In this document: positions 8,270 to 61,300 of the stretch, in pieces | Position numbering within the stretch: the first letter of the stretch is position 1 | Layout of the letters: each line of letters opens with the position of its first letter | Assembly: GCA_030704615.1 (NCBI GenBank) | Contig: CM060731.1 | Span: 83,142,001-83,206,000 of the forward strand | Direction: 5' to 3' | DNA from: Takakia lepidozioides | Lineage: Eukaryota > Plantae > Bryophyta | DNA: 64,000 bases | Program-made: the position numbers and the translations under genes | The notes under the pieces: model-generated | The model's database searches: none | Seen by the model: only the letters and a program-made list of their open reading frames with translations | Told to the model about the DNA's origin: nothing

Positions 8270-8445
8270 GGTCCTGCCTGCGTGGCACCCCCCGCCACCC
8301 CAGCCGCACCCCCTTCGCCGGCTCATGCGCGGCTCGCGGTCGCTGCGCCCCCTCGCCCCCGCCACCCCACCCCTCCCCCCCCCCCCCCCCCGCGCCCCCC
8401 ATCCCCCTGCCCGCCCACCCCTCCCCCCCCCGCCCCGCCGGCCGT
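8270..8445. repeat. C-rich low-complexity tract (G-quadruplex-prone on minus strand)
   Basis: Dense C runs. The Pro/Gly-rich ORFs here are compositional. Confidence 0.6.
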
Positions 8446-9063
8446 CACCACACCACATGAACTCTGTGGCACATGACACCTGTCACCACAACCCATCATT
8501 GCGCACGGCATTAGCACATGACTCGGATGGATGGGATGTAACATGATCCATGTGCTGCAATCACCCATGATGATGGACGGCTTGACATGACAGGATGTGA
8601 CACATACTCATATATGGCCGTAGGGAGATCGCGATGATCATGCTTTCGTGCTTTTCGCGTCCAGTTCGCACGCACATGGTGGACCTGTCGATTCGAATGC
8701 GGCCCCTCAGCTGTCACTCCCCACGTCGATGCTTGATTGATTTAATTCATGGCAGCCACAGGACAGGTTCTCCAAGCTTCCTGGCGTTTGCATGGCCCGA
8801 AATGTATGATCCCGGCGGAAGCGGTGTTACAAGCACTTCCTTGCACAGTATGCATCGCGGCTGTTATAAACTGTTGACTGAGCTGTGGCGGTGAAGCGAT
8901 TACTCATTCGACTTGAGTATAGGGTTTCTTTTTGGAGAATTTGGAAGTCATTCGTGTGATTTGCAGCTATTTTCTTCCTCTTGCTTGCCATTTCTGTCTG
9001 TTGCAGTCCATTTGCGTGCTTCATGTTTTAGTGTGAGTTCTTGCTTTCACATTCCAACAACAT

Positions 9064-12000: not shown

Positions 12001-12119
12001 ATCATTGTGCAAAGCAGGCAAATCAAGTTGACTCTGTGCGGATTTGGATGCAAAGACGGTTCCCCTTCTTCAGGAGTGAGGGTGTTGAAGCCCTTATTGT
12101 GCCAATTTTATGCAAGTGA
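9064..12119 (+). pseudogene. Degenerate multi-exon transposon accessory gene ending in a Ulp1/C48-protease-like fragment
   Basis: Serial ORF pieces (9064-9843, 9910-10200, 10250-10777) are broken by stops. 11904-12119 MDFWV...IRVVDSFTW...VRIW...ALIVPILCK resembles the N-terminal half of the Ulp1 catalytic domain and is truncated before the His. Confidence 0.45.
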
Positions 12120-12123
12120 GTAC

Positions 12124-12790
12124 AGCCCGCGCCACGCCGCAACGTCGGGAAAACGCCCTTTTCGGGCACGCGGGAGGCGCAGAATTTGCGACGCCCGACC
12201 GTCGCCCTGCAGTCGCAAGGGCGTCGCCAAAATGACGTCGCAAAAATGCGACGTATGGGGGTCGCGAGCCCCCGCCCTAACTCCCGCAACTGCCGGACAT
12301 CGGTTTTTCAGGCCGTCCGCGCCGATGGCAGGAGCCTCTTCGCGCGACGTCGCGCCGTCGCGGCCCTCCAGCCGACGGCGTTGGTGGGGGCGCCGGAGCG
12401 GCGTTGCATTTTATTTTTATTTTTTTCTAACCTGCCCGGGAGTCAGCTGGGTGGTACGCCAAGCAACTATTGGGCGTGGCACAAAACAGCAGGAGTCGGT
12501 CTCCGCCACGCCCGGGCGTGGGTTGTTGCGACGCTCCGGCGTCGCTTTTGTTTTAAATTTAATAAATAAAAAAACGTGGCGCAGGCAGGGTGGCGGTCTC
12601 CGCGACGCCTGGGCGTCGCGGCTTGCGACCCCCGGACTAAAAACACGTCGCAGGGGGTGTCGGGCGTTGCCGCCTGCAAATTGGGTTTGCGACGCCCGAC
12701 CGTCGCTGCGTGCGACGCCCGCCCAAAAAACACGTTGCCATTGGCGACGTGCTGCAGTCGCGAGGGCAGCCTGGTGGGGGGGGTTTGGGA
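12124..12790. repeat. Cluster of GCGACG/CGTCGC motifs in both orientations (CACTA-like subterminal repeats)
   Basis: TTTGCGACGCCCGACCGTCGC occurs at ~12185 and ~12687, with many GGGCGTCGC/GCGACGCC copies. No clean CACTA terminus is seen. Confidence 0.5.
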
Positions 12791-13118
12791 GTTCATTTTG
12801 GGGGTGAATTGGGGGTGGTTTTTTGTTTTCTTTTGTATTTGGGGATGGGAGAACTTATTGTTACATGCATGAAGGTGGGAGGTGTGATTCCATAGCCAGT
12901 AAGTTAGACAATGATGGCCGATTCGGCGACGAAATAACATCTCCTGACAGTTTCTCCTGAGGGTGGATCTAGCAGTATTCTCGGTGCAAACAGGAACGTT
13001 CGCACTGACAAGTGCCAGTACTGTTAGTTAAAACGGTCAGACAACCAAGTTGTGCTCATCAAGACTGGCCGCAATTGTGTTGTTTCGGAACAATGCAACC
13101 CATTCAGGTTCCGCATGC

Positions 13119-14700
13119 GGAAATGAGGTTCCGCATTTCCGTCTGGAGTGATACTTTCGATTGCTGCTGGACGGAAATATGGCGCCGCATTTCCGTTTTG
13201 CATCTTGGTCATGCACCAGAGCGACGGAAATGCGGCACCGAGTTTCCGTCCGGGGGAAACCTTTATACTCTCCAGAACGGAAATGCGGTAACGCATTTCC
13301 ATCCAGCAAGCACGGTATGTGAAGGTGGAACGGAAATGCGGTACCGCAATTCCGTTCTGATTGAGAATTATGAACAACGGGAACAGAAATGCGGCACCGC
13401 ATTTCCGTCCGAGTCGCACCTTCCGACATACCAAGACAGAAACACGGCGCCGCATTTGCGTTTTGTATCTGACGCATGGAGTTGAGGGATAGAAATGCTG
13501 CACCGCATTTCCGTCCGGGTGAGACCTTCATACTCTCCAGAACGGAAATGCGATACCGCATTTCCGTTCTGACTGAAAATCCTGAACCATCGGAACTGAA
13601 ATGCGGCACCGCATTTCCGTTTTATATCTGAGGCATGGAGCCGAGTGACGGAGAAGCTAGAGCGCAATTCCGACCGCTTGAGACATTTATACTATCCAGA
13701 ACGGAAATGCGGTACCACATTTCCGTTCTGACTGAAAATCGTGAACCATCGGAACTGAAATGCGGCAGCGCATGTCCATCCGAGTCGCACCTCCCGACAT
13801 TCCAGAACGGAAATGCGGCACCGCATTTCCGCCCGGGTGAGACCTTCATACTCTCCAGATCGGAAATGCGGCACCGCATTTCCATTCTGATTGAAAATCG
13901 TGAAACATCGGAACTGAAATGCGGTACCGCATTTCCGTCGGAGTCGCACCTTCCGACATTCCAAAACAGAAATGCGGCGCCGCATTTCCATTTTGTATGT
14001 GAGGCATGGAGCTGTGGGACGGAAATGCGGCACCGCATTTCCGTTCTGACTGAAAATCGTGAAACATCGGAACTGAAATGCGGTACCGCATTTCCGTTCT
14101 GATTGAGAATTATGAACAACGGGAACGGAAATGCGGCACCGCATTACCGTCCGAGTCGCACCTTCCGACATTCTAGAACGGAAATGCGGCGCCGCATTTC
14201 TGTTTTGTATATGAGGCCTGGAGCTGTGGGACGGAAATGTGGTGCCGCATTTCCATCCATGTGAGACCTTCAAACTTTCCGTCCAGGTGAGACCTTCATA
14301 CTTTCCCGAACGGAAATGTGGCACGGCATTTCCGTTCATCAACTAAGGTATGTGAAGGTGGAACGGAAATGCGGTACCGCATTTCCGTTCAGATTGAGAA
14401 TCATGAACCACGGGAACTGAAATGTTGTGCCGCATTTCCGTCCGAATCGCACCTTTCGACATTCCAGAACGGAAATGCGGCGCCGCATTTCCCTTTTGTA
14501 TCTCAGGCATGGAGCTGTGGGACAGAAATGCGGCACCGTAATTCCGTTCAACAACTAAGGTATGAAAGGTGGAACGGAATGCGGTGCCTCATTTTCTTCC
14601 AACAAGTACGGATGTGTAGCTTCGTGATGGTACTTAACGGAAATGCGGCGCCGCATTTGCATTTTCACTCCAAGTCATCAGACGCTGGGACGGAAATGCC
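13119..14700. repeat. Array 1 of 22-bp palindrome GGAAATGCGG(CA/TA/CG)CCGCATTTCC, ~29 copies, 53-bp period
   Basis: Copies start at 13173, 13226, 13279, 13332 ... 14233 in exact 53-bp steps (one very degenerate unit at 13650), then 14312-14524. The 31-bp spacers are drawn from about five or six recurring types. Confidence 0.95.
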
Positions 14701-16084
14701 TTGAAATGTGAACACGTGGAGCGAATTGCGGCACATGTCTGCATTCTATCTGACTGAAGTGGCATCAGGCGGCGCGGCCTGACCGTTGGATAATGATGTT
14801 TGTTTTTCGGACGGCAGGCGTACCCTGAACGATTCGAATTTCGTAATGACGCAAAGTCCACGAGGAGACACTTTCGTCCAACCCTTTCGAACCCAAGTGG
14901 TGCATCACCGCCGTTTCATCTTCTTTTGTCGTGTCTCCTCAGTCACCCCTCTCGCGCCTTTTCCATCTGCACTCTTTGCTCCTTTTCCCTGTCTCTGTTT
15001 TTCTTATGCTCGAACCTAAGAGAGAGGAGTGCGTGCACCAGAGAAAAGACATCGTCGCAAGCTCCAAAAATTGTACTTCGGACGTAGGCCAATGCCGAAG
15101 GGGAGGAAGCAGATGCGTCTACAAGAGGAGATTGCCATCTCGCAGCATCAGGCCACGCAGGCAACCCAGCCACTAGTGAGAGCTCCGTGCTATTGGGATT
15201 CGGCAGCTGATCGAGCACCGAAACCCGCCTCATTTTTCTTCTGCAATTCTTAGACTGTATGCTAGGAGACTTGAATGCAGAAGATGTTTGCATGCCTAAT
15301 CGGAAAGGTGGACGTGCTGGAATCGGAACCGCAGACAGAGTCCGTGGAGCTAGCTGCAGCACGCACACCCAGCCGATCCACGAGCACAAGTCTTCCTGCC
15401 GGGCCTAGCCCTGTGCGTTTCAAGGACGCGGCTTCCAAGGGCAAGTCTTTGTAGTTCAAAGCCCCAGAGAGCGACTCGCCTTCGAAGGTCATGGAGAATC
15501 GCCAACAGGGGTCTAGCCCTTCTCCAGCAAAGACGAAGAAGAAGCAGCCCGTCCTTCAACTTGTTTCTGAACCGGACCAGGCCGTTTCCCCCCCACCCAG
15601 GCGAATGAAGCAGATTCAATTGCAACAGACACCTTCACCTGCAAGAATGAGGAAGCACAAGGCAATCAGGGGGAGGGTGGAGCAGTCTCCTACAAAACTG
15701 ATTCCACGAGCTGAAGCCCAGTTCCTGCTTGATTTCTAGCCTAGTGATGTTGGGGGCGTCTCTGCTGTAGCGAAGGCAATGGGATCGACCGATTTCGTCG
15801 ATCTGGTACCGGAGGAGGGTGCTGCCTCTCAACGTTCGCAGCAAGACCTGACCACTGTTGAGGAAGATCTTCATAATACTGAAGGCCCGGAGGAGACCTC
15901 TGCGATTGCAGAATTGTCCGCAAAGATTCCACAAAGTGCAGCTCCAGTTGGGGATGCTCCAGCTGCTCAGCCCCTACCGCCACCAGCAGAAATGTCTCCG
16001 GAGGAATTCCAAAGTGCTGCGGATACAATGTTGGAGGAGACACATAGTAGCATTGGCAGAGTTCTGGGCAGCAGGGTATTCTAG

Positions 16085-16523
16085 CGGACTCTTCGAATCC
16101 CACTCTGTCGCATGGTCTCCCTTCCCATCGTCAGGCAGGCACTTCCCGGAGATGTGGATAAGCTCAAGTTCGCATTTCGAGAAGGGTACCGTCTAGGTTC
16201 GCCAGCCTTCTACGTTTCCCTTGAGAATGAGGACGGCGAATCTCGTGGACCCACTGCGGAGGAATTGTCAACATGGGATACCCACTGGCACACTTGCAAC
16301 GACGAATTCGAGGCAACACTGAAGGGTGATCCCGACTTCGGCCATATGTCGGGTAAAATGTTCTTTGTGTGGGACGGGAATCACCGACTTCTCGCCTGGT
16401 GGGAGTACATCAAGCAGAACCATGCCAAGCACATTGGCTGGCATTACATGGTGGAGTGTGTCATCCTCAAGGTGAAGGCGGCAGACTCCTCCTGCTCAAG
16501 AATGCCATGGCGGACCTCAACTC
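16085..16523 (+). CDS. ParB/Sulfiredoxin-like (ParB-N CTPase-fold) domain exon
   Basis: LPIVRQALPGDVDKLKFAFREGY...FFVWDGNHRLLAW carries the ParB-N features 'R...V..L...F...G' and hhhhDGxHRhxA. DGNHR is at 16373-16387. Confidence 0.7.
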
Positions 16524-18694
16524 GTAAGATACTCATACCCTCCCAAGCACGTTCGAAATGCGGTGCCGCATTTCGGTTTCCAATCTGTTTTGTTTCCGTG
16601 CTTTCGTGGACTGAACTGGAGAGTGTGCCTTGCAGGGTCACTGAAAATGCGTACGTGCATACCCACATGGCACATATGTTGTACAGGGTGAGGAAAACTG
16701 GTCTCACTGATCCGCACATGTTTGCGGAAATGCTGGAGCCCGAGCTCATTCGCCGTGGCAAAAACTGACCGGACATGGTATCGTCTCACTATGGATGGAA
16801 TGGTGGAGGTGATATACGAAGTAAGTCGTCCTCCCATTTCCCTCTGCTCATCCTTCCCCAATTTCCGGTAATCTTTCCACATGAATCGAATGTAACGCTT
16901 CTGCATGTTTTTGTTGGCAGTCAAACATCAAGCTGGATTTGGCCCATGCCAAACGCTTCTTCATGGAAAGTGAGGGGCAGGTCAAAACGTTGCAGTCATT
17001 GACTGAGCACTTGAAGGAAGCCGGGGTCAAGTCCAGAACGAAATACAAGTCAAAGCTTGTGAAGCTGGTGGCCATTGCAGATCCGGCACTTGGAAAGGAC
17101 TTCATCCCCGAGATTGCAAAACACTATTCTCGGGCCATGCAGCCGACCATGCAGTTGGAGAAACTGCATCACCTCTCAACGGCATGTGTTGAAGCGAAAG
17201 AGAAGGTGATGTTTCAATGCACTGAAGTTCCTTCCTAGCAATAGCCACTCTTCTTCCTGCTCCTGACATTGGATCGGAAATGGCAGACACGGTGGCTGTC
17301 GATCTGGAATGCATCGGAGAGTATAAGGACAATGTGGTCTTTTCCACTCGAAGTTTCCGACCCTGCAGTGGATGTGTGGCTCAACCGCATGACTTGGTGG
17401 TTCCAGGTAATTCAAGGTACTTCCCCATATTTGCTTTTCTGAAATGAATTCCCTGAACTGCTACGTGACAATGCATGTGGAATCGCAGGTAATGACGAAT
17501 GCGAAGGAGCAAGTCGTAATGCATACAAATTCGTTCGGCTTGTACGTCAAATGGGATGGAACACAGACATTGGAAGACTACGTGACACGTTTCAGATGTG
17601 CGTACAAGGACAACCTCTTCGCCAGGGAGCTGCAGACAGCAAGAAGGAGCGTGGAGTTTACACATCAGGAGGGAGCGGGAAAAGCTGCAATGCGAATTGT
17701 TTACAGGTGAAGCCCAGCTGTCCTTGTATGCGAAGCCTGGTTATGAGGTTTGTCTGGGAAATGCGGCACCGCATTCGCATTTTATGTTTTCGGTTGCACT
17801 CTGCGAGTACGTTGGTCTCAACTTTTGCTCACGCATGCTGACTGCCCTGCAGGTATATGAAATACGTGCTTCTTCAGACAGGGGCCCTGGCTCAAGAGCC
17901 CCCGTTCTTCATGGCTTGGACCGTGGCGGGCCCAAGCTGTGTCTACACACCCGAGATGCAGAAACAATGGCATGCCGCGCATCTGGTTGGATGCCCGTGG
18001 TACCTGGACATGTCTGGCGGAATTGTTGACGAGTCTGAGAAAGATCTGCACGCGAAAGCAAAGAGAAGAGAAAGGAAAGACGTGTCCCTGCTTGGGCCAG
18101 AGTCGGCAAAGGAAGCTGCTGCTCTGGAACAATCCAGAAAGGCAGCTGAGATGGCACAGAAGACGGTGGATGCAGCTGTGCAGGCTCAACAGAAGGGGTC
18201 CAAGAAGCGGACTCGCCAGCAAGGAGCAGCAGTTGTGACACCCAAGAAAACGAAGAAGCAGAAACAGATAGTGCAGGTAGAGGGTGAGGAAGAGGACTCC
18301 GATGGAGACTTTGCAACCAGCCCACCCCCCGAGACGCAGCCGAAATCCCCTGTGCCCACCGTTGTCACGAGAGGGACGAGAACTGGCTCGGCAAAGAAGG
18401 CACTCTTCAACCCCCCGGGGGGCACCCTTTCGAGCCGGTGGAAATGAAGAGGCCGAAAGTGGATCCCGATACAGTAGTCCAGTGTGTGAATGAGAGTTTC
18501 TTGGCGGCTTTGGATGGACGGGCAGCCAAGTTGGCATACATGAAGACCATGGAGGGTCTGAAGGGCAGAGCACTGAAGAAGGCGGCTGCCGAAGAGCCTT
18601 CCGACACCCCTGGGTTTCTGAAGATGGTCTCGTTCTTTGAGAGGGTGTGTGCAGACAAGGTTGCAGGAGGGGCGGAAATGCCACCGAGTGGTCT

Positions 18695-19630
18695 TGCGAT
18701 ATGATCATCTTGGATATTCCGGACGGAGAGCCTGTGGAAGGACTGCAAGCTTTGCCATCTTGGAACAGGTACTCCGAGGACTTTTGGAAGAAAGGATTCG
18801 GGCTCGCCCGCATGGTGTTGGACGACAGAGGCTGTGTGGTTGTCCTGGCGAGCAGAGGCAAAAACACGCAGACAGGAATTGCGAAGTGGACCCGCAAGAG
18901 CGCCGTCCCAATTCTGAAGAAGAAGTGGACGTGCATCAACACATTGGGCCTTTGGTCGGAAGGGAAGAAGGTAATTACGACATTGGCACTCGTCCTTTCA
19001 TTTTCTTAGGAGTTTTGAAATGCGGTGCCGCATTCGATTTCTTGTTCCCCACTGTGTATGCAGACAAAGCAGTTCGATGCATACTGCTTTGTGAAGGAGA
19101 ACTCCACCTTTGCTTTCCGGAAGGAGGGATTGTTGGTTGACCCGAACTGCGACCCCATCGATTACGACGTCCTGTTCAACAACGTTCCCACGGAACTTCT
19201 CCCTCATAGCCTCACTTCAACTGAACCCTTGCGGTATTCACGCACTCGGAGCCTTGCCTTCATTCAGACAATTATGGAGACATGCACTGACGTGGAGGGC
19301 ACAGTGCTCGACCTCATCTGTGGGACAGGTATGCAGAATCTTGTTGTATGCTATTCTGCAAACTCTCGTTATGCTTTCATTCGCAACATCTGAAGGGCCA
19401 TGTCATAATGTGTGGATGGCATTGTAACAGGTGCCTCAATGTGGGCTGGGCGGTTTTCCGACCGGCACCTCTTTGCCTACGAGGAGGACACATCCGTCTG
19501 GGGATCCCATCTGGAAGGGCTGCAACGGAATGTGAAGGCTCCCATTGAAGCCAAAGACTCCTCGGATTTGTCGGAGTCGGAGGAAGAGACAGTGGACATT
19601 GATGCCGAGGAGAACCCGCAATACGAGTGA
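18695..19630 (+). CDS. Beta-class amino-methyltransferase (N6_N4_Mtase-like) domain over three exons
   Basis: Motif IV-like CDMIILDIPDG (18695-18727); ARMVLDDRGCVVV (cf. ARRVLKPGGS). After splicing 19329-19430 the sequence reads RSLAFIQTIMETCTDVEGTVLDLICGTGASMWAGRFSDRHLFAYEED, matching motifs X-I-II. Catalytic motif before SAM-binding motif is beta-class order. Confidence 0.75.
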
Positions 19631-20343
19631 GTGCATTGTAAGTTTGCAAAGCCTTCTGGGTGATTTTTTGTCAAATGCATTTCCAGACTGTGGTCGTCAT
19701 TGGTCTCGTTGGTGATTGTTATGTGCAGGATTCCCGGATCCGGGTCGAAACATGTAGGGCCTACACTTCCTGCCAAGAAGAATGTCCCGTTCTTTGCGAG
19801 GCCCGACTTCATGACGAGCCCGGTGAAGGACTACTCCCTTCCTAGTTATGCAGCTAAACTCGCAAATACAGCGATTAGACGATGTGAGAATCCCAGTAAA
19901 GTAGAGCAGATTTTGGAGAGGGCTAGGGAGGACAGAAGGATAAGGAAAGAGTTGGCAACAGCTGAGACAGGTAGACAGGTGCGAAAGTTCATATGTGATT
20001 CAGCGGATGAGAGCGATGCAGACAGGGAGGACGACGAGCCAACGGAGGTGAGATGGTCGGTTCCGCAAGGTGAAGATGGGATTTTTGAAAGCCTGGCCAA
20101 CGAGCAGTCCGCTGGAGATGAGAAAGGCAATGACGGGGTGGAGGCGGAGCAGGACAGTCAAGGACAATCAAGGACAGGACGACGATAGTGATGATTTTCA
20201 AGATAAATAGAATTTTAATGAACTCTCTGTACATTTAAATTCTATTCCAAAGTATATAAAGGAAATTCTCCCCGTCCTTCATGTCCCCTCTCCCATTTGC
20301 CTCTCAACGACAACATCGTCCAAACCTGGTCCCTCCCAAAATC

Positions 20344-21312
20344 TGAAATGCGGCACCGCATTTCAATGTCTGAACGGAAATGTGGCAACTGCAAAAACCT
20401 CGTTTGGAAATGCGGCACCGCATTTCCAAAACCGGGGCAAGAACAATTTTCCGTTTCATGGTTTGGACATCAGAAACTGTTCGGACAAACGGAAATGCGG
20501 TGCCGCATTTCCGTTTCCGACACGGCAGTTTTGCCGATTGCCAGCTCCTTCCATGGAGGTAAATCGAAATGCCTAGGTCGAACATGGAAATGCGGTGCCG
20601 CATTTACCTTTTGGAGATGGACATTTTTCCAACTGCAGACCCATCGACGTTTTTGGGCTCCCCATACCATGATGCTAGACGGGAATGCGGCACCGCATTT
20701 CATTGTCCAATAAGAAATTTTGATGACGTACATGGAAATGCGGCGCCGCATTTCCAAAACGGACATCATTGTTTGCCCAATTCCAGACCCTTTGACGGAA
20801 ATGCGGCACCGCGTTCCATCGTCCTATAAAAACTTACATTGTCCTATAAAAACTTTCGATTGCCCAACATGAAAATGCGGCGCCGCATTTCCAAAACAGA
20901 CATCGTTGTTTGTCCAATTCCAGACCCATGTGGGCATTCCGTCTTGATGGACGGAAATGCGGCACCGCATTCCATTGTCCAATTCGATATTTTGATGACG
21001 GACATGGAAATGCAGTGCCGCATTTCCAGAACGGACATCATTGTTTGTCCAATTCCAGACCCTTCGACGGAAATGCGGCACCGCATTCCATTGTGCTCTC
21101 CGGAAATGTTGTGCCGCATTTCATTGTCTGGTACGAAATTTCGATGACGGACATGGAAATGCGGTGCCGCATTTCAAGTATGGACATGGACAAGCATTAG
21201 CAACTGGACATGCTTGGACAATTCAAGGTCCAATATGGAAATGCGGCGCCGCATTTCAAATTCGAAGTATGGTAATGCCATGTCAGGAAATGAAATGTTG
21301 TACAGCATTTCC
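20344..21312. repeat. Array 2 of the same 22-bp palindrome, ~15 copies
   Basis: Copies start at 20344, 20406, 20491, 20586, 20681, 20734, 20797, 20871, 20953, 21006, 21069, 21102, 21155, 21237 and 21291. Confidence 0.95.
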
Positions 21313-21665
21313 GTTACGACGACAACGAAGGAAAGGGAGCTGCCAGAAATCGCTGCATGGAGAAAAATGAAATGAAGTGCCGAATTTCCGAGCTTCGGCG
21401 TGTACATGTTTCCTACAACTCATAGATGGATTTTCTTCACCTCAAGACTCTGATATCGCTGACTCTGGTATAGTCATATGGACAGACACATTGTAGAAAT
21501 GAGACCTCAAATTGTAAACAGTGGGCCAATTACGGCAGTTCTTGAACACGATGAAACACAAGCACACAGAAGTGAGGTACGATGGGTTGTTTTATTGATC
21601 GAACAGGGTGTCTCACATTTAGCAACTCCAGACAAATCTAAGCCCTTCCTCCTTCTACATGGGCG

Positions 21666-22244
21666 TCACCAAGTCGACGGAACTTCGATAGCCCTCAAAA
21701 CAAGCTCATTACTGATGTGGCACCTGGAGGTAAACTGCAATGCGGTCGATCTGGTGCCCTTGGTGGAGCTGACGACAATGTCATGCCCATCAATCATACC
21801 ACCATCATACATTGACAAGGTCACTGTGGGCCTCCTGTGCCCGTGTGATTCGTCTTCGCAACTCAGCCGAATGTCTCTATACACTGGAAAAGCGGAGCGA
21901 ACTCCACGAATATAGTTTTCCCCGTTGCCGTCCTCCCTGGTCCACTGGCAGCAGTTCCAGCGCCAAAGTGAGGCCGTGCGTGATCTATCCGGCATCCCAT
22001 TCCACCTTGGTATATCGAGGTCAACAATTTTCAGGACCCAAGGACCGCATTGACCCTCGCCCTCACCTCGCTCAAAGCGGTAATAGCCCTCCAGATACTC
22101 CATTGCGCGCAAAGACTCCCGCTTGATTCCAGAAGCGTCTGTGAAAATAGAGAGCCAGACAATGATGTCTCCTGATTCAGGTTTGAACATAGCATAATCG
22201 TGGCCATGATAAGGGCAGTCAGCAGGATTTCGGCGGCACGGCAT
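21666..22244 (-). CDS. Uncharacterised intronless protein (~192 aa), paralog of 22800-23363
   Basis: Intact ATG-to-stop ORF that aligns end to end with its neighbour: MPC...DCPY.G.DYAM....SGDI..W, EYL.G.Y.FERG, RWNCCQWT, GVRS, DGGMI.G.DIVV, ELVLRA.EVP. Confidence 0.75.
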   Translation of the reverse strand: MPCRRNPADCPYHGHDYAMFKPESGDIIVWLSIFTDASGIKRESLRAMEYLEGYYRFERGEGEGQCGPWVLKIVDLDIPRWNGMPDRSRTASLWRWNCCQWTREDGNGENYIRGVRSAFPVYRDIRLSCEDESHGHRRPTVTLSMYDGGMIDGHDIVVSSTKGTRSTALQFTSRCHISNELVLRAIEVPSTW

Positions 22245-22799
22245 CCTTGAAAAAGAGTAGCGGAGTACGCTCAATGACAGTAGCTCCCGGATGGAGGAGG
22301 CAGCAGCGTGGTGGCTGGAAGAAATTCAAGCAAACGCTGCAATTCCTCACAAACACTCCAGGGCACATTTAAATTTCCCCCCGACAGGAACCTGCACGGA
22401 TGAAGATTGGATGCTCCATGAATGTAGCCGTTTCAGTTTCCTTCCCTGCCATGCAAAGTATGGGCAGTAAGTGCCAGCTGGGCCTATAGCCACTCGAGAC
22501 GACGAAGTCCATCCCTCCTTCGATGTAAATGCGGCGCCAAATTTCCATCCGGGGGATGGACTTCGGTGGCAGATTTCAAACTATACCCCGTGGATGAGAA
22601 AGAGGTATTGGTTCATCCACCGCTGGCGTGATGAACACGTTACACGATGATTGGTGGGTACTTGTGACCCAGATGCTCCATTATTGGAGCCCGCACTGCT
22701 CTTCCGCTTCTCATCATTTCGAAATCTAAGGGCTTTGTTGCTGTCCGCAAGGTCATTGTCACCGGCATCAAAGACGTCCTCAGGTCCTCCTTTGCAAGG

Positions 22800-23363
22800 A
22801 TGCCGTGCTTCCAGAACCGGGACGACTGCCCTTATGGAGGCATCGATTATGCAATGTATTCGGCCACATCGGGAGACATCGTTATCTGGTACACAGATTA
22901 CACAGAAGATACTGGTTCGAATGTGGAAACATTGTCCGCTTTTGAGTATCTCCCAGGCCAGTACGCCTTTGAGCGGGGTGACAATCTTGGTCTGAGGAGT
23001 CCGTGGCTCCTGCGCATCCTTGATTCCGATTTTCCCAGCTACGACGGGCACCCATGCAGAAGAATGCGCACTGCTATGCTGTTGCGGTGGAACTGCTGCC
23101 AGTGGACGTGGGTGGACTCCATCGGAGAGACTTATACTCCTGAAGGAGTGCGCTCATCTTCTCCATTGTATGGGGACATTTGCATTGGTGTGGAGGACGA
23201 AAACGTGAAGCTTTCCATATTCGATGGTGGTATGATTGAAGGGCAGGACATTGTGGTGAACATCAACAGGGGCGGTACAATAGCTGCAATCCAGTTTACC
23301 TGGAGGAGCCCAATGACTCATGAGCTAGTTCTCAGAGCAGTCGAAGTCCCATTGACAACGTGA
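22800..23363 (+). CDS. Uncharacterised intronless protein (187 aa), paralog of 21666-22244
   Basis: Intact ORF in head-to-head arrangement with its paralog and sharing the same motifs. Confidence 0.75.
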   Translation: MPCFQNRDDCPYGGIDYAMYSATSGDIVIWYTDYTEDTGSNVETLSAFEYLPGQYAFERGDNLGLRSPWLLRILDSDFPSYDGHPCRRMRTAMLLRWNCCQWTWVDSIGETYTPEGVRSSSPLYGDICIGVEDENVKLSIFDGGMIEGQDIVVNINRGGTIAAIQFTWRSPMTHELVLRAVEVPLTT

Positions 23364-24802
23364 CTTGTATTCAGAAGGCACAGGGCTAAAGATTTGTTTG
23401 CACAATTAGCACTGTAGATGTGCTTCAAATGCAATTCATGTGGATCAATAAAAACCCCATTGTGCCCTCTTTTTGTTCTATTCTGTATCCATCGTTCCCA
23501 AAATGCATCATTCCTCATTTCGTTTGGGATTGGGAGTGTGGGTGGATTTTGCAAGTGGCTGGTAGGCTGAAATGGGCCCCCATTGTACAGAGCAGTATAC
23601 CATTCGCGAAACATTGCCTTCCAATATGTAATTCTAAAAAACATTGCCGAACCTCCTTCATCGGGAGGTCCTTCTCCCCCTATGACCGTGACACCCTAAA
23701 CCCTATTCCTGCGGACACTCATTTCCGGAAAATAGTCCTGCTCATGTTTTTTTTTACACTTACGACTCTGCTCATGGCTCATGAAATAGCAGCCCCCCGT
23801 GTAAGAGGAAGCTATGCTTGACTGTACCTGTGGAGGCTATTTCAGTTGGACAGTATTATGGCTAATGGCGTTGGTATGTCCACAGAACCCTCGCAGATCA
23901 TTGTGTACTCTGCTCAGTTGCAAGTTCATCTTCTTACGGTCCCTGTTGTGATGATGCAATGTGAGTATTATGGAGAAAATGTGTCATATGGAGCTTGGTT
24001 GCTTGGCCTTCATGTGGAGCGGCAATCGATGAGGTTGATATTTGTTGCAAAACGGAATCCAGTTGTTGCCGCCGGTGAGAATCGGAATTGAGTGCATTTC
24101 ATGAACTGAATGTCTGTGATGTTTGAGAAAGTGAGGTTGCATTTTCGTCCTCTTCTTTCCTTAAGGCTGCCTAGGCTATAGCCTTCGAGCCATCCAATAA
24201 TATTCCGACTCTTGCACTCGGAATAGCTGCTTATGTGACCATATGCCTGAAAGCCCCCAAAAACAGTCAAATATGGGAAGCGGCATATGTTTAGTTTCTT
24301 CAGTTCTCAAAATCAGTAATGTATATCTTCATTTATTTTGAAGGAGGCAGTATACAGTGGAGGTGAACCTCACTCGTTCAAGACGTTTCCTGGTTAAGCG
24401 TCATCATGAAGATTTTGCTTTCGGAATGTTGATGAATGCTTTCCAATCGGTCTGGGCCGGGGGTGGCAGTGTAGCAGGGTTGGCGGTTTCACAACTCTAG
24501 TCATTGGTGACCTAGTAGACCGCATTTGAACTGGCATATGTTCAATCGCAGCTTAAGTTGCAACTGAAAAAACACACTCGCACTTACGTTTGGGCAAAGG
24601 CAGACACGTTTCAGGGCGTTTGTTTTTGGTACCGGTGTTTCCAACTTCCTTTGGGCTGCTTTTCATTACGAACTCAGGTCATGACATACTATTCAGGTAC
24701 GAATGGTTTCGTAAGGATATTCATGTTCATTCTACCTGATACATGGATTCAACACATTGCGCGAGCACATGAACGTCCACAACTAAAACAGGCGGCAAAT
24801 GA

Positions 24803-25944
24803 TCATGTAAACCACCAGCAGTTGCCTCTTACCGGGCCTGCGCCACCAGGTTGTGGATTCAAGTACGTTTGCACTAAGTACAGCTCAATGTAATGAGCTA
24901 CAAACAGACACTGCCATGTGTTGGCCTGTTGTGGAACAGGCGGGCAGAACCACCGCTTGAGGTCAGTCGCATCCTTCCACTGGGGGCTTTCTGGGCTGAT
25001 TCCTCTGACCATGGCCCATAAAGTAGCAAACAATGGCTTGAAAGCATGGTGCTTGTGCAAACGTCTTATGCTATTCAAGTGAAGGTAGCGAGACGGTTAA
25101 AAAATAACCAGACTCCAATGGTCATTGCACAGGGGGGCAACAACAGCAGGTTAGTCCACATGTAGCAATGGAGCACGGCCTTCTTCAAAGGTACGGCAAC
25201 AAGAAGGTAGAAATGCATATGTCGCAAAGGCCCCCCTTTTCCTGTAGTGTTTCTAGAGGAATGAAGGAAAGCCTGAACAAGGAGTCTTCAACTCATACCA
25301 ACTCTGAGAGAAGTAATTGTTTCAACATGCATGTACTATATGTCTGAAGCCGGCTTTCATGTACAAACCCCAAAATAGGGAGGCACAAAGTGAGAGTCTG
25401 GTGCAATGAATTCAACCAGTATCAGGTCTTCAATGAAAACATGAGAGTCTTACAATCTCTAACCATTCAGTCCTGCATAGCTGCAGACCTCATCCTCCAA
25501 AAACCCCTTAGAGGGGTCTACGACTATTATGCCCCTCTTACTTTCTGGGATGAGTTCCAGAAACTCTTGTATCCATCCCTCTCCCATATCTACATGGTAC
25601 CCCCAATCCACAACACCCTCCCCTTTATAGCGGCTGCTTGTGTGGTGCCAGGTCTTCATCACAAGCCTGTCCACGAAACCTAACAGCACATGGCACAAAA
25701 CCACAACTCTTTGCTCCTCTTCATCCATTGTGTAGAAACACTTCAGGTCGCCCATGTGGACTGTCATTGTCCTGACTCCTCCCTGGATTTTGTACACCCA
25801 CACTTTGTCCTGCCTTTCTTCCGTTTGCACCTTTTCAAGAAGGCGCAAGATGACCTCATGGGGAATGTGGGCTGACAATTTTTCAAAACCTGCATAAATC
25901 TTCTGGAGCCTGAAAGCTACACCCGCCCCAAAATCCCATTGCAA
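24803..25944 (-). pseudogene. Ulp1/C48 SUMO-protease-like gene, degenerate
   Basis: Minus strand reads VVAPLCNDHWSLVIF*PSRYLHLNS (catalytic His; Asn at the usual Asp position) then PVPQQANTWQCLFVAHYIE (Gln and catalytic Cys). It contains an in-frame TAA. Confidence 0.7.
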
Positions 25945-27454
25945 CCTTCAACTTGATAGAGTAGTCTCCTCGGAAAATGTCAGTACTATAGTGTGTGGAG
26001 AAGATGATTCCAAAGAGCTATGACAATCTTAGAAGAACACCAGGAAAATAATGTATACATGAGACGACTTGGGTAACCCTAAGATAACAACAGAACTTCC
26101 AGATACTTCCTCTTGAAAGAGATGATGTGAAGAAAAACAACGATGAATCACATGAAACATAGAATGACCCTGTGCTTATATTCAATTTTTGAACCTGCTC
26201 TTCTACAAGGTCTTGATGGGACAAACATGAACTCCCCCCCCAGCAGAAAAAACACCTATGTATATCCCATCGAGGGTTGCACTGTGTAATGGCTGCACCG
26301 TTACACATGGCATTTGCATCCGTTTGTCATCCATCCATTCTGTGTAGTGATCCCCCTGTCGGATTTATCAGCTTCACTTCTTCTTCTCTTATTCAATTGA
26401 GGTTAAGTAAAGTCTTTGTCACTGGAGAATGAACCTAGCTTTGTAAAATGTTGTTATGTACACATACACAATGAATACATCGTTCCTCTTGTGCTCAACA
26501 TTGTACAAGCGCTAATGTGAATGATTGTCACAGTTCGAAGAAAACAACCAACTTGAAGATGCACATAGGTTTTTCAGACTCCAGCTTGTCATGGTCTTGT
26601 GCAATTCATGTGTAACAACATGTCAGATTTACAGTATGACGCTACCATTCAAACACGATATCAGTAACCCATACAGAATGAATTTGCAACATTGTACATG
26701 GCCCAATGTGAATGCAAGTGGCAGTATGAACATGAACCCTAAAATGCCAGATGCATTGAGGTTTTGTGACCATAACCTGTTGTAGTCTTACTCAATTCAC
26801 ATCTGTAGTCTCTTATTTTGTATGTGAGAGGGAGTGGCGAAGACTTCGACAATCTTAGTCTCCATGGGGTTGGGTTGGCTTCTGTGTCATGGAATAGAAT
26901 GTCCATGCCAGGTTACAATTTACATATTTTACCAGCAGCAGGACCTGCTGTGAAATTGAAGCATAAGAAATCACCATTGAGAACATAACTGTGAGAACCA
27001 TGGGTCAGAAAATGGCACAGCCCCTGGATATAATCGTGTGACACTGTGACCTCATGTCTGGAGGCATAAGTCTGGAGGCATAAGTCCAGAATTTTGTGAA
27101 AGAAAGACTCCAATGAAGGTAGATACGGGAACAACTGTTTTCTCCAATGCCCCATTTGGATCGCCGATGTGCATCCCATGGATCGATGAAGTCTGTAACG
27201 TCCGCACGGTTACACATGAAGTTTCATCCATTCTTCTGTCAGATGTCTTTTCATCCGCCAACCATCACCCGACACTATCATCCTCAATCCTCATGTTCTG
27301 TCGCTGTTCATCCCATCGACGGATGAAATATGTGTGCATGCACGGTTACACATGATTGTCCATCCATTATTTTCTCAGTTGCCTTTTCATCCGCAGATCA
27401 TCATCCGTCTGTCTCCTCCTCAAACCTCATGTTGTTTTGGCGCGTAAGGAGGTT

Positions 27455-27720
27455 TACTATTTCATGAGCAGAAACCATGAGCCATGAGCCATGAGCTGCA
27501 TGAGCCGCATGAGCGGTGAGCCGAAGTCTAAGACACGCGGATTTCATGAGCGGACTCCTCCAAATTTGGAAATGCGGCAGATTAAACAAGTATTAAAATA
27601 ATAGTTTTATATTTGACCTTGCCGTTTTTGGAAGTTACAGATCCTGTAATGCGGCGAAGATATGTCGTCAGTAACAACTCCGCTCATGGTTTTTTAGATC
27701 CGCTCATGGAAATGAGTGAC
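27455..27720. repeat. CATGAGC/GCTCATG motif cluster
   Basis: CATGAGCCATGAGCCATGAGCTGCATGAGCCGCATGAGC plus inverted copies. A related inverted cluster is at 23735-23790. Confidence 0.6.
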
Positions 27721-28278
27721 CGTGCAACAAGAAATCCAGTATACCACGGCAAAAGGACGTCGCATACTGGCCTGTATAGAGTATTCCGCGGTTTTACATG
27801 CCTTAACATTGGAATGAAGCTGACCCTTTTACCGCGATTGAACCAATAGAGTCTGCACAATTCTGTCATCTTCTAGTATTCGGCGGGAAAGGTTTGCTAC
27901 TCAACTAGGAAATGCGGTGCCGCATTAGGGTTCGCACGTGCAAAATTTCTGGGCAGTTTGGTGTTGGTGAATGCCGCATCTACCAGTACCTACGACGTTA
28001 CTTGGAAATGCGGCGCCGCATTTCCTTGCCGGGGGTCGAATGAGGAAAGCAAAGTTTGGGAGAGCAGAAAAACAGGAACCCTCCAACACACAAAAATACA
28101 TGCACGTGGAAACACGAGTGAATGACATAGTATTATCTTAGTTCGAGAAAAACAGGTTACTGGTAGGCAAGACATAAGTCGGACCTTTCTGTGGCCAGAG
28201 TCAGAGCTACTTGCAGCAGTACAGTTCTACTATCCGAAAAGGATGGGCGTACCATAGTGTTGGGACCGCAAGCCAAGG

Positions 28279-29010
28279 TCACTGGTCCCCTGGATCCATA
28301 TTCAGAAGAGTGTGTACCTCTTGGGGGCTCAACCCTGGTGCATGTATGAAGTGATGAGTTGTGGAATTACACCGGAGTCTCTTTAGGTACACGTAGTACA
28401 GATGCTTGCAAGGGCAGTATGATGCCCCCTTGTTCGCCATGATCTGGAAGTCGGTGCAATTGCAGGAGGGTAATTCTGAAATGGTGATGGTGTACACCTC
28501 ATTGCGAACAGCTGAGGCCATCTGATACACACGCCCGAAGCCTGGCGGGGGCACTTCTATCGAGCTCTAGATTGTACAGTTCATCCAAAGTGCATTCCCC
28601 ATCCTTGTCTCGTTCACTTTTGAGGGAGGTCGCCGCCTCTTCGGTTTCCCCCAACGGTGTGTAGGATGCTTAGAGCTGTCGGGTCCCATTGTTCTTGCTC
28701 TCATAGGGGTCGGTGGTGGAGGCTGTGGAAGTGGAAATGGTTGTCTAGGGACGTCAGTGCACTGCACCATCCGAAATCCTGCGGCGGTAAGGGCGTCGGC
28801 CTCAACCTGACTCAGATCGCAGCCTGGTTCCACCGGCCACACCAAGGGAGCCTCTGGCATTGTTTGTATGCCGTACTTGGGCTTTCCATACACGCAAGTC
28901 ATAATGTCGTGCCTGCAGAACCAGAACTGGGTGGTTGTCGCCTCCGCAAACTTTGCATGGACAAATCTTCCTGTAAAAGTAGGAGCACGGACAGCACCAT
29001 TTGGATTCCT
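28279..29010 (-). mobile_element. 3' part of Mutator-like transposase with C-terminal SWIM zinc finger
   Basis: YTITISELPSCNCTDF...CPCKHLYYVY is a SWIM finger. Removing the retroelement and one TSD restores the frame MIRR|NPNGAVRAPTF with the 40677-43542 part. Confidence 0.8.
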
Positions 29011-29095
29011 TGTCGTGCGCATACATATCGCACACAACTACATCGTTGTCCAAACCACACCACACATATATGCACAATAAAGTAGTCTGCCACAA
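29011..29095 (-). repeat. Terminal segment B of copy A (PPT AGGGGGGCGA at 29096-29105)
   Basis: Near-identical to 61301-61391 and 61744-61829. Confidence 0.9.
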
Positions 29096-29353
29096 TCGCC
29101 CCCCTAGCTGGTGGATAGGTCCCTCTAACTCCAGATAGCTACAAGATATAATAGCCACAGCCGTACTAAGTCCTCTATCACTGTCCCTATTGTACTCAAC
29201 TCTATCAACCAAGAGGCCGGGTACAAGAGTAGCCCCATCGTTAGTCGCCGTCTTGCAATCTGTGAACTTGAGCCAGGACCTCGTGTGTTCAAGGTCTCCT
29301 AGTAGCTGGGCCTTGCGTTTCTTGTTAGCCTTCCATAGTTGTATCCACTCCCA

Positions 29354-32300: not shown

Positions 32301-32495
32301 CTTCAGTGCTCCTAAGTCCTTCAAACTGAAGGCAGAGCAATTCCTGTAAGCCCTCAGGAACCGCCGTATACGTCGTCTCTCTCCTTCGGTGACAATGGGT
32401 CCAACATCAGGCTCCCAGTTGTCCTCCCGTGACTGCAACCTTAAGTCCAGTGGGCTTAGAGGTAGAGGACGCGTCCCGTGGTTGCTATGCCGCAA
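29354..32495 (-). pseudogene. pol: RT, RNase H, integrase, C-terminal PHD finger (copy A)
   Basis: YIDDIIIFS; LHTDWS/SSYEGECLA; HEELGH...CMVC; SLDFAG/TDQGREF/GLAER; C4HC3 PHD CMLC...CDRC...WHMGC...WLCPHC. A few stops and frameshifts are present. Confidence 0.93.
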
Positions 32496-36661: not shown

Positions 36662-37190
36662 CTCCCCTACGTGACACTATAAGGCTCTATTACTGATTCT
36701 AATAGTGACACGGGTGGGCACCTGTTGCAGTTTAAGGGTCATATCCCAGTGGCTCAGGGCACCTGCACCTACATCCACCGCAAGAACTCATATGGTTGGC
36801 TGGTCATCAACCCAGTCTCACCATAGAAGAAACACTGGTGGTCTTGCTGGTCATCACTCCAGCCTCACCACCGACAGCATACTCTAGGATTGACCGGTGA
36901 TCAAATCCGGCCTAATCCCTATGAAAGCAAGTGCCCACACAAAACCAACATGGTGCACAGTCAAGCATGCAGGTGTTGGGGGGGATCCAAACACAAGAAA
37001 TCAAAACATCAACACCCCAACACCAAAATCCATCTGCAATGCTGATCTTGCAGAATATCCCAGCCCAAAACCCCGGACTGACTGGCCTCCACCAAGAGAG
37101 GCTTTGGCAACTACAAGTACAAAGTAATGAAAATAGTAAAGAGAGGGAGGGGAAGAATAGAAGCCCGACCAAGCAAGATCTAATCCTGAT

Positions 37191-40676: not shown

Positions 40677-43542
40677 CCTTATCATCTCTAAACAACGTTG
40701 CCGTGTATCCACTCGAATTGCGGAACACCTGCCTCGAAACGACGGCTTTGTGCGAGCAATTCTCCACTGTGACACAGACACAGTCGTCTCCACAATGGCT
40801 TGGCCATACTGCATAATAGCGGGCGGAATCTGGGGCAAGCGAGCGGTGGGAATTTCTCGCACGGAATCCCCGCTTGAAGGCGATGGCGATCTGGAATTTC
40901 TTGGGCTTCCACTGCTGGAAGACACATTGTGTGGCAACATGACGGGCCCTCGAGGTGCTGTCCGAATGTTCCTATCGGATCTCCAGGAATCCTCTTCACA
41001 CCCAGGTTCCTCTTCAATCCTCCGCCTCACAGGGCGAGTACGTACGTCCCCCTCTAGGTGCTCACCTCTGTGGTGCAGAGGCGTCCCTTTGATCTTCTCT
41101 CGCAATGTTGTCGTCCATTTCAGTGGATTCTTCGACCTCGAAGTTGTTCGTACCAACAATTCCTCCCTGTCTGGCCCAAAGCCCCATTGTTTCCCGCTCA
41201 GGAACTTGAGTACATGGCTTGCTGCATGGTTGCTTTGTCGATGTCCTCCGTTGTGGCCGTCACTACGTCCACCAGATGTGCGGCAGAACACGCTCGCCAG
41301 GAGGAGTGCACTGATTCTGCCATATTCGTGTTCGGCATGTCTGTGTCGGAATCCAAGCACCGCTCCTACAAGGATACAAACAATGGTGAGGAACCAATGG
41401 AAAGGTCCGTAATAGAAAGACAATTGCACGAAAATGACAGCATCATACCTCCCGCATGTACTGTCCGAACTGTCGATACCGGAAATGCCACCACCCCAAC
41501 CAGCTGTGCAAGGCTCCCAGATTGGTTGTCTTCACTGCACCTGACGTGTTCCACCAAGCCTTGATGATAGCAAACTTAACCTCCACATCATCAAATGTGG
41601 GTGCATCCTTCCACGCCGTACAAAGGACACGGTGTTCAGCTTGGAATGAGCTAGCAACAAATTTGGTAGTGTAGTGAGATAGACTCTGCATCCAATGGAA
41701 TCCACAGGATCTCTCTTTCCCCTCCATTGGAACATTGGGGTCCTCACCGTACACACGCCGCACCGCTGCCCAGTTGGCCTGAGCGTTGTCTGCCATGAAT
41801 CCCCTGAAATTGGGCTCTGGCAATCCCGCCCTTGCCATCTGCTCGTTTATGCCCTCCCACAGATGCATCTCCAACTATGTGTCCTCCCCTTTCATCTCGC
41901 AGATTGCAATCGTCATGAGCCTCTTGGAGTGATAGTCATAAACATGCGCACCCATAGTCACCCACTGATGGTTTGTAATTCGCTTGAAGTGATCAAACAT
42001 CACCCAAGCATTCGACAAGTTTCCAGTTGTCATGCGAGTGACCAAGTCGACTCCACTCCCAGGCCCACACGTCGACATTTTAAAAATGTAACAACGATCG
42101 GATTCGCTGCCTTGCCCTGGAAACCTGCTACCTTGGATGTAGTCATATCCAGTCATTCGTTTCACCTCCAGGATTGAGTGCATGTCCGACCCCCGGCCGA
42201 ACTCCTGCTTGCAAGATACGATGTGATTCCGCACATTCGGACTACAAACGTGCGAGACGGACTCCAACAGGTCAAGCATCTCCTCTTCGTTCAAGGGCAC
42301 TCGGTCTGAACCATCTTCAAACATGATTTTGCCAAGAGCAATCTTGTGGGCTGCCTTCAGCTGAATCTGCTTTGGTCTGGCTCCGGGGCTCAATTTCACC
42401 TCCTCTTTTATGATGTCGTGTGCTTCTTGCACAACCTCACGCATGTTGCCTCTCGCCAAGGGGTGGCAGTGGACCCCAACATGTATGCAAGCTCTAGTCA
42501 AGTCCAGGAGCAAATGGATAACGTAATATTGCTTGGCTCTGCACATGGACATGCACGTCGGTGGTTCTTTGCAATGTGCGCACTTGAAAGTACCCGCAGG
42601 AGTTTGGCTGGAGACAATGAATGGATGATACGTTGTGCCAGTCCAATCCGTCTCGTTTCTCCGCCCTTCTTTGGAGAGAAAGTGGAAGCAGGCAGGATTG
42701 AGGCACCTCAGCTTCCCCGCACAGAGGACGTATCGTACACGAACACCATCAGCAATTTTCGTGCTACTGGTCTTCGTTACACACCAGGGGTGTCCATCAT
42801 GCTTTCGATCCATGTCTGTTAACATCCCTGAGGCTTTGTTTGAGGAAGTAACAGGTGGAAACTCGAAGATGACATTGCCATCGACTTCGGGAGGCAGATA
42901 CGTTACCTTCCTGACTGGAAATTTGGCATAGTCGAGAGCAGCCAGCTCGGAGCGAGAACCATCAAGGTGATGTTGCCGTAGGAACTGCACAATGGACCGG
43001 GTTGGAGTTATGCTCGAGGGTACATGCGTAGCACCTGCAGAGACGTCCATCTCGGATTTGAACGACCGTGTGGAGGACATGGGGACCTCAATGCACTCAT
43101 CTTCATCGTCGGAAATGTCGAATACGTCCACACGAGAAGCTATGGAGGGTCTTGACGGTTCAGGTCGGGAATGATTATCGTTGCATACCTCTCTATTGGC
43201 AGTGGCCGCCTGTCGGTTTCCGGACTCCTTTGTGGATGGTGTGGGCAGCGACTGATTCGGAAAGGGAATGGGCATTCCCACAGCTCGGTATAGGATGGTG
43301 TCTGATGGGGGTACGTGCCATTTGATTCCGCAACCTCTGTCGTTACCTAGCATGACAATGGTCTCGTCAACCTGTCCAGGAACATCCTTTCTTTCTTCTT
43401 CCAAATAAATTGTGCCCGGTTTGAGCTTGAATTTGGAACAAAGGTAAGTTTCAGTCACTCTGCAAAGTCCTCCCTTGTTTGGGATCCAGGCTCTCCCAAG
43501 TTGCAGAGGACAGCAAACTATAGCGTAGGAATTCGGAGCCAT
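40677..43542 (-). mobile_element. 5' part of Mutator-like DDE transposase with GCM/WRKY-like Zn DNA-binding domain
   Basis: DGHPW...CAGKLRCLNPAC...CAHC...C...HVGVHCHP is GCM-like. Catalytic motifs: WVMFDH (D), FMADNAQA (D), CGFHW (CxxH) and, after intron 41366-41448, PNTNMAESVHSSW (E). One in-frame TAG at ~41875. Confidence 0.8.
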
Positions 43543-43821
43543 CGAAGACCGCACGAAGTTGGCAAGTGTGAGGTTCAGTATAGCGACAGACCAAGGCTCA
43601 CAGGCACCTAGCGGAGTCCATGGACGATTGGAAGTCGCACATTGAAGTGGAAAGTATTGTTGTTAGCAGGTACACAATTGAGCAAGCATGAATCGAGGGT
43701 GAGGACGGTGCGACACATGAATAAGATGGAAGATGGAAATATGGAAATATGTTTACAAGAAATGAGCTGAAAAGCTCACAAGGGTTCAGTAGACTGACCC
43801 TGGGACCTACATGGACTAGGA

Positions 43822-61290: not shown

Positions 61291-61300
61291 AGGGGGGCGA
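61291..61300 (+). promoter_or_regulatory. Polypurine tract
   Basis: AGGGGGGCGA immediately precedes segment B in both copies. Confidence 0.75.

Follow-up and report, generated by a model that had tools for sequence, protein, structure and literature searches.

The question raised by this locus of the moss Takakia lepidozioides is why the palindromic sites of an irregularly spaced array should keep helical phase, and which factor would read them. From the spacing of one array, an earlier note on this DNA had argued that its sites are kept on one face of the helix, pointing to cooperative protein binding on duplex DNA rather than to an RNA role. Here, the whole stretch of 64 kb (the window) was analysed. 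The phasing is real and exceeds chance at moderate strength, and the sites sit in the non-coding parts of one Mutator-like transposon (MULE) of ~15.5 kb. This host, with a ParB-fold/methyltransferase gene between the arrays, was missed by the earlier note.

Palindromic sites and their host transposon

Scanning of the 64-kb window with the 18-bp core (up to three mismatches) yielded 50 palindromes, and a weight-matrix scan returned the identical 50; three core matches with four mismatches at 6857-10819 were discarded as noise. Array 1 comprises 28 of the palindromes (13121-14641) and array 2 comprises 16 (20346-21370), with six located elsewhere (Table 1). By both scans, all 50 sites were found within the bounds of the element and none in the remaining ~48 kb. 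The two arrays, with 44 of the 50 sites, flank the ParB-methylase gene and three more sites lie in its introns (47/50 flanking or intronic), while modelled exons contain none. Array 1 is positioned upstream of this gene and, in the joined form of the element, upstream of the transposase gene also, whereas array 2 is bordered by the 3' end of the ParB-methylase gene on one side and that of the paralogue X1 on the other. A 159-bp higher-order period was observed in array 1, and duplication of units is also visible in a 136-bp higher-order repeat.

Two other identities of the arrays were ruled out. A coding repeat is incompatible with periods that are not multiples of 3, and the reading frames of array 1 gave just two weak Pfam matches, both below the cut-off. 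Sub-terminal foldback TIRs were rejected since the true element ends are located elsewhere; the arrays are internal, not terminal, because the TIRs and the TSD that mark the termini map to other positions.

Table 1. Features of the transposon and its palindromic sites (window coordinates)
Feature	Position	Strand	Details
Permutation break	12862..12862		in other copies preceded by sequence near 43639-43662 (loose ends, two runs)
Array 1, 28 palindromes	13121..14658		mostly 53 bp (5 turns); six spacer groups, sequences unlike
ParB-methylase gene, decayed (stops, frameshifts), intron-containing	15092..20185	+	exon model by eye
ParB-fold exon, DGNHR	16085-16523	+	homologue alignment
Intronic palindrome	16556..16573		intron GT at 16524, AG near 16635; homologue P0037 aligns across
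Intronic palindrome	17759..17776		intron 17707 to ~17852
Beta-class amino-methyltransferase-like exons	18692-19627	+	DIPDG before DLICGTG
Intronic palindrome	19018..19035		intron 18971-19063
Array 2, 16 palindromes	20346..21387		core AAATGCGG-NN-CCGCATTT; irregular 33-95 bp spacers
X1, ~200 aa	21669-22325	minus	reading frame
X2, ~200 aa	22668-23360	plus	reading frame
Right TIR, 21 bp, imperfect	23777..23797	-	CATGAGC subterminal motifs; two runs' contigs end at 23797
Lower-depth flanking DNA between 8-bp TSD copies	23798..27448		CGTGTAAG 23798-23805, CGCGTAAG 27441-27448
Left TIR, starts GAG	27449..27469	+	CATGAGC repeats then to 27708
Distal palindrome pair, 96 bp apart	27910..28023		degenerate site at 27964, giving 54+42 bp
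Six palindromes outside arrays	16556, 17759, 19018, 22527, 27910, 28006		motif scan
Transposase 3' part with SWIM finger	28282..28998	-	Pfam SWIM and L003 alignment
MULE-like transposase 5'/middle part, WRKY-GCM1-fold DNA-binding domain	40677..43554	-	structure model, alignment

The copy in the window is decayed, circularly permuted and split by insertions. Over 12862-23797, and again from ~27450 onwards, contig depth, which is not to be equated with copy number, exceeded that of the flanks ~20- to 200-fold. The MULE features of G-starting TIRs and an 8-11-bp TSD are present in the form of imperfect 21-bp TIRs and an 8-bp duplication; the latter has one CpG-type mismatch and marks a single insertion, in a permuted copy, and a contig joint from 27443 to 23801 represents the empty site. 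The motif CATGAGC clusters at the two element ends (12 of 22 matches in the window). The element was permuted along with 3.65 kb of flanking DNA (23798-27448), and TATTGTT occurs at both outer edges (12862 and 43662); the permutation may stem from the re-integration of a circle, from rearrangement in tandem or from the assembly.

The transposase spans ~43554 to 28282 on the minus strand and is split by ~11.7 kb of nested insertions, with an intact relative (L003) being colinear with it across the 11.7-kb gap. The structure model of its N-terminal domain was matched best by GCM (1odh; probability 0.99, Z 6.2, rmsd 4.3, 130 aligned), with Z of 5.4-6.1 against WRKY domains. The SWIM finger reached a Pfam E of 0.017, below the cut-off, and aligns to L003, and the MFDH, FMAD and N-x-AE-x-VH motifs are conserved in the transposase alignments, the DDE triad being a putative assignment. 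No match to the Pfam MULE family was obtained for the transposase frames. The combination of a WRKY-GCM1 domain and a SWIM finger is described as a MULE transposase architecture (PMC1702500). A locus search with the transposase alignment found none in viral contigs and one in genome contigs. Behind the related transposase of L003, at 3814-3908, lie six TGATACC-like direct repeats spaced 33, 11, 11, 22 and 11 bp, which possibly follow the phase rule seen here but with a motif of their own, or else form a minisatellite of 11 bp.

X1 and X2 are divergent genes, 52% identical, in the high-depth element beyond array 2, with one palindrome (22527) between them; their products were predicted by eye to be β-rich. 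Scans of both against Pfam, PHROGs and NCBIfam revealed no family, and the best Atlas score, for X2 only, was 0.80. The CpG observed/expected ratio of the element's genes (0.71-0.74 vs 0.48-0.61 in neighbours) is only a hint at a sequence-specific loss of 5mC.

Other parts of the window hold further mobile DNA and gene fragments. Two inverted Gypsy copies, 95% identical (29011-38238, minus strand; 52163-61391, plus strand), contain a C5 cytosine methyltransferase frame, and the first also has a PHD finger after the integrase; retrotransposon-borne methylases are known from streptophyte algae. A fragmented gene without Pfam match (9037-12116), the last piece of which we take by eye to resemble an Ulp1/C48 protease, is followed by a GC-rich, palindrome-rich stretch (~12120-12850). 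Myb/SANT (Harbinger-like), BED-finger-like and LFY SAM-domain fragments are present at 644-3605.

Helical phase and spacer turnover

The start-to-start distances of the first 15 sites of array 2 are 62, 85, 95, 95, 53, 63, 74, 82, 53, 63, 33, 53, 82 and 54 bp (n=14), exactly as listed in the earlier note. As it had claimed, each of the 14 is no more than 2 bp away from a multiple of 10.5, the chance level being 44% of the integers 30-110. That list stopped before a degenerate 16th site at 21370 (three mismatches), which follows 77 bp on and is 3.5 bp off phase, 14 of the 15 gaps of array 2 thus being in phase. The distance of 96 bp given for the distal pair was also found to be correct.

A cosine test at 10.5 bp against uniform lengths was performed, with a scan correction over periods 7-16. 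The 14 distances gave C=0.81 (p=5e-6). With one entry per distinct spacer and the omitted 77 included (n=12), C was 0.66 (p=5e-4; 0.017 scan-corrected), and for the strictest set, one per spacer family (n=8), it was 0.63 (p=0.006; 0.16 after the period scan). An enlarged set of 24 was composed of 18 window spacers and six new ones from other copies, including the ambiguous off-phase distances 113 and 144; 20 of the 24 are within 2 bp of n×10.5 and four are off phase (p=2e-5; 1.4e-3 scan-corrected), with a best period of 10.49 (bootstrap 10.37-10.65). Counting each length once (n=18) gave p=1e-3, or 0.04 after scan correction. Compared across periods, C was 0.58 at 10.5, 0.55 at 10.4, 0.20 at 10.2, 0.10 at 11 and negative at 10.0. 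The earlier note had proposed a circular test that corrects for duplicated units; after the period scan, the phase was significant in the enlarged set and not in the strictest one.

The spacers of other copies were taken from the best-supported joints listed, with joints inside sites or outside arrays excluded. Among the joints listed, nine with readable letters gave gaps of 63, 63, 52, 32, 53, 53, 53, 33 and 113 bp, a loose end gave 33 bp, and three joints with unknown filler gave 53, 63 and 144 bp. Two compositional origins of the spacers were ruled out: 11-bp half-sites, by the fit of only 0.10 at 11 bp, and a 10-bp sub-repeat, by the masked spacers, in which no 10-11-bp or 21-bp sub-period was found.

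The sequence of the spacers changes while their length remains in phase. Between homologous spacers, the change in length amounts to roughly two or three turns (53 to 74 and 63 to 82 bp; in two less secure pairs, 63 to 95 and 53 to 33 bp), and the six unlike spacer groups of array 1 all measure 53-54 bp. One 79-bp gap of array 1 is exactly out of phase; it originated by a 26-bp tandem duplication and corresponds to 53 bp in other copies, among the joints listed. In agreement with the earlier statement that the spacers of the two arrays differ, these are essentially unrelated (z>5 in 2 of 810 pairs compared). All five degenerate half-sites located within or next to the arrays and the distal pair keep the phase, and both exonic half-site matches within 130 bp of a full site are off by 5 bp. 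Within the sites, 85 of 100 arm CpGs are retained, and the dyad centre is CG in 11 of 50 sites and represents a CpG decay series (CG 11, CA 18, TG 12, TA 8, TT 1). The A-run and the T-run inside one site are 15 bp apart and out of phase.

The placement of the sites on the same face of duplex DNA is thus supported by the 10.5-bp period (C=0.58 vs 0.20 and 0.10), by spacer turnover in phase and by the retained arm CpGs. The sites are dyad-symmetric, with conserved arms around a free centre, and are spaced in whole turns, as would be required by a dimeric protein arrayed on one face of the duplex. The phasing is accounted for as well by an ordered bending or wrapping of the kind suggested for F sopC as by cooperativity.

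The ParB-fold/methyltransferase gene

For the gene between the arrays, homologue alignments support the ParB exons and the first methyltransferase exon of the model. By sequence comparison and structure prediction, the encoded protein family was shown to combine a predicted ParB fold with similarity to N6/N4-methylases. At E up to 0.001, the search with the DGNHR exon returned 1025 relatives, of which the named ones are unannotated or mis-annotated; named homologues of the family derive from the liverwort Riccia and the fern Adiantum. For the model of homologue P0177, ParB, Noc or KorB occupy the first 11 VIA rows, and residues 146-308 matched ParB with a best Z of 8.6 (rmsd 2.5, 100 residues). 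Extended ParB/Noc/KorB alignments into the helical region after the nucleotide-binding domain, where a ParB-type HTH would be expected, had an rmsd of 9-10, with mixed pLDDT. The Atlas provided a lead to PF02195, on 11% of one cluster, for the family of the ParB-fold exon, and the exon in the window itself had no Pfam match. PDB sequence searches with the ParB and transposase alignments gave no matches, a locus search with the ParB alignment found none in viral or genome contigs, and no ParA or other ATPase family was detected among the element's reading frames scanned.

The C-terminal fusion is retained in homologues. Three of the five Riccia homologues scanned match Pfam N6_N4_Mtase (E 9e-6 to 5e-5), at scores of 23.7-26.2, just below the cut-off of 26.7. 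A profile of six homologue pieces recovered the window exon 18641-19006 (E 3e-12) and did not find the motif-I exon (19058-19330), for which all seven weak phage matches are DNA methylases (E 0.4-2). Sequence searching with the first methylase exon returned chance matches alone, and a word search with the second returned no homologue. Motif IV precedes the SAM-binding motif I, the order of PF01555, both in the window and in homologue P0196 (DLPTG then DFAGGWG; Pfam E 5e-5). The canonical (D/N/S)PP(Y/F) motif was not found; D-x-P is kept in DIPDG (window) and in DLPTG, DMPSG and DVPFG (homologues), and one of these four variants (DVPFG) has an aromatic residue. The methylase part of the model had a pLDDT <50 and no fold match. 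As the motif is non-canonical and the Pfam scores fall just under the cut-off, the methylase may be inactive. The Riccia proteins P0194, P0196 and P0197 are labelled 'trimethylguanosine synthase' by their source, yet match Pfam N6_N4_Mtase.

Related systems and candidate binders

A parallel in site architecture is found in F sopC, where 43-bp repeats equal four turns and place SopB dimers on one face, and where the accessible text nowhere contains 'cooperativ' (PMC3177203). As in this ParABS system of type Ia, tandem palindromes adjoin a ParB-family gene in the element, their spacing is in whole turns (43 bp in sopC; 53, 63, 33 bp and others here), the central dinucleotide is variable and degenerate sites occur at array edges (PMC3177203). 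Unlike sopC, the sites described here lie in a eukaryotic, integrated transposon with introns, array 2 is irregularly spaced and a methylase is fused; ParA was not found among the scanned frames, and a partition role is not expected.

Among transposons, red-algal giant Plavaka elements have a ParB gene (PAG3) beside tandem arrays of inverted repeats; these and Chondrus Mutator elements carry accessory genes PAG1-3, for which, in the text available, self-binding and modification are proposed (10.1101/2025.02.11.637652). This kind of system is, therefore, already in print. The likeness, which rests on the description of domains and arrays, extends to the giant size of the DNA transposon (17-19 kb in Plavaka, ~15.5 kb in Takakia) and to its ParB-domain gene, inverted-repeat arrays and N6-adenine methylase-type gene. 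In contrast to Plavaka, where a 2OG oxygenase is described as the fusion partner of ParB and a separate gene joins the methylase to SET, ParB fold and amino-methylase similarity are here combined in one gene. The host here is a GCM-fold MULE, homologues are in liverwort and ferns, and sites are intronic too, while helical phasing is not reported in the main-text section on the Plavaka arrays (10.1101/2025.02.11.637652).

The Arabidopsis VANDAL elements are likewise large MULEs with short or degenerate TIRs, in which the target motif of VANC is amplified, as the palindromes are here, by tandem repeats in introns and intergenic regions (PMC5735166, PMC10398659), VANC binding being reported in introns, intergenic and terminal regions (PMC5735166). 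VANC motifs differ from the present sites in being 8-9 bp long and non-palindromic, and the main text of the VANC papers, in the parts available, contains neither 'helical' nor 'periodic' (PMC5735166, PMC10398659). No Pfam match to the VANC family was obtained among the element's scanned frames. In Shigella VirB, a member of the ParB family has been diverted from partition to the relief of silencing on a mobile element, but it is described as bacterial and CTP-dependent, acts against H-NS and is without a methylase (PMC10653881). Foldback MULEs such as Muta1 also harbour repeats that bind an element-encoded protein in multiple copies, as is predicted here; however, the Muta1 repeats are reported to be in the TIRs and to bind the transposase (PMC5499845), whereas the phased arrays are 2.4-10 kb internal and a different motif is found at the ends. 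The chlorophyte-type Dam methylases described as fused to ParB-HTH represent a different methylase group (PMC4738411), and ParB is not mentioned in the accessible text of a Marchantia 4mC preprint (10.1101/2021.02.12.428880).

By analogy, the element would in its working be a sopC/VANC hybrid, and is a member of neither ParABS (no ParA found) nor VANDAL (no VANC match). In a literature search covering papers available without subscription, neither a green-plant MULE with a ParB-methylase nor a transposon with phased internal arrays came up, and the same holds for the ParB-methylase fusion, the GCM-MULE host, the green-plant lineage, the phase rule and the intronic sites. A scan for the palindrome pattern found none in viral contigs and two matches in metagenomes, neither of which is this element: one is a chance match in bacterial DNA, and the other (L002) is an unrelated AT-rich contig with three unlike palindromes. 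At 371-486, L002 has the same core palindrome once and two longer CCGCA-type inverted repeats near CACTA-like ends; the resemblance is probably convergent.

We give an even chance to the reading that the ParB-methylase fusion is the binder, acting at parS/sopC-like sites in a self-marking or anti-silencing role. A dimer would bind each 18-22-bp dyad, and whole-turn spacing would bring neighbouring dimers onto one helix face in an ordered, bent or wrapped array, with phase-breaking length changes being purged and spacer sequence being free to drift. The fusion protein, possibly a nucleotide-gated sliding clamp, may then spread outward from the arrays and methylate the element (6mA or 4mC) or simply coat it, which could shield its divergent promoters from host 5mC silencing, as VANC does on VANDAL. 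The fuller scenario is tentative and somewhat doubtful: a captured bacterial ParB sliding clamp would load at the phased arrays and slide along the 15-kb element, the fused methylase would write a 6mA/4mC self mark against host 5mC silencing, and the family would extend across liverworts, ferns and other seed-free plants.

It is unlikely that the WRKY-GCM1-fold transposase binds the palindromes instead, for self-regulation or synapsis, although its top structural match is GCM, ATGCGG is common to the half-site and the GCM consensus ATGCGGGT (six of eight bases; PMC2172107), array 1 lies upstream of its gene in the joined form, MULE transposases are reported to activate their own copies (10.64898/2026.08.24.746577) and the distant relative L003 has direct repeats behind its transposase. 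The termini, the usual place for transposase sites, carry CATGAGC instead, the L003 motif is unlike ATGCGG, DNA-contacting residues are described as poorly conserved across the WRKY-GCM1 fold (PMC1702500), and the transposase's own intron has no palindromes whereas the ParB-gene introns hold three. The phase could also be a by-product of unequal crossing-over from 53/63-bp founder units, 20-bp slips having kept the register without selection. Units are visibly duplicated (the 136-bp repeat and the spacer families), one +21 change amounts to a simple tandem duplication of 20 bp, and the strict set of eight is weak after the period scan. Such an origin is nonetheless distinctly unlikely, given that unique spacers (62, 85, 95, 82, 54 and 96) and new spacers in other copies (63, 52, 32 and 33) are in phase too, masked spacers show no 10-11- or 21-bp sub-period, six unlike spacer groups of array 1 share 53-54 bp, the out-of-phase 79 becomes 53 in other copies, and lone sites persist in three introns.

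The X1/X2 pair, as a VANC-like accessory factor, or else a recruited host transcription factor, is very unlikely to be the binder: array 2 abuts X1, one site lies between the divergent genes and the paralogues could bind the dyad as a heterodimer, but the pair gave no DNA-binding family or fold lead and only 1 of the 50 sites lies between them. Nucleosomal DNA has a period of ~10.2 bp, at which the fit drops to 0.20, and at 10.0 it is negative; a rotational-positioning signal that exposes the sites is highly improbable, despite the near-equal fit at 10.4 bp (0.55 vs 0.58) and the 159-bp period of array 1, as the A-run and T-run within a site are out of phase and a sequence-specific binder would be required anyway. 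The earlier preference for duplex DNA over an RNA role is upheld, and the repeats acting as RNA or single-stranded DNA hairpins (a small-RNA source or a cruciform) is scarcely credible: the strong folding of the strand (z -15) is expected of any palindrome run, pairing between copies is independent of spacing modulo 10.5, a hairpin loop would need more than the two bases of the centre and no Rfam family matches.

With the ParB-methylase fusion as the favoured binder, the findings lead to a self-targeting transposon system in a variant not described before, in which a protein likely docks at arrays and thereby chemically marks or protects the transposon's own DNA. For VANC, it is stated to be an open question by what means a single transposon protein can recognise and de-silence an element over its entire length (PMC5735166), and the red-algal idea of ParB plus arrays is a conjecture without a defined site. 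With an exact 18-22-bp dyad, a phase rule that can be measured and a candidate binder whose fold is well understood, load-and-spread anti-silencing becomes open to direct testing. If true, this would place a CTP-clamp-type protein at work in the plant nucleus and might explain how seed-free plants could come by methylation other than 5mC.
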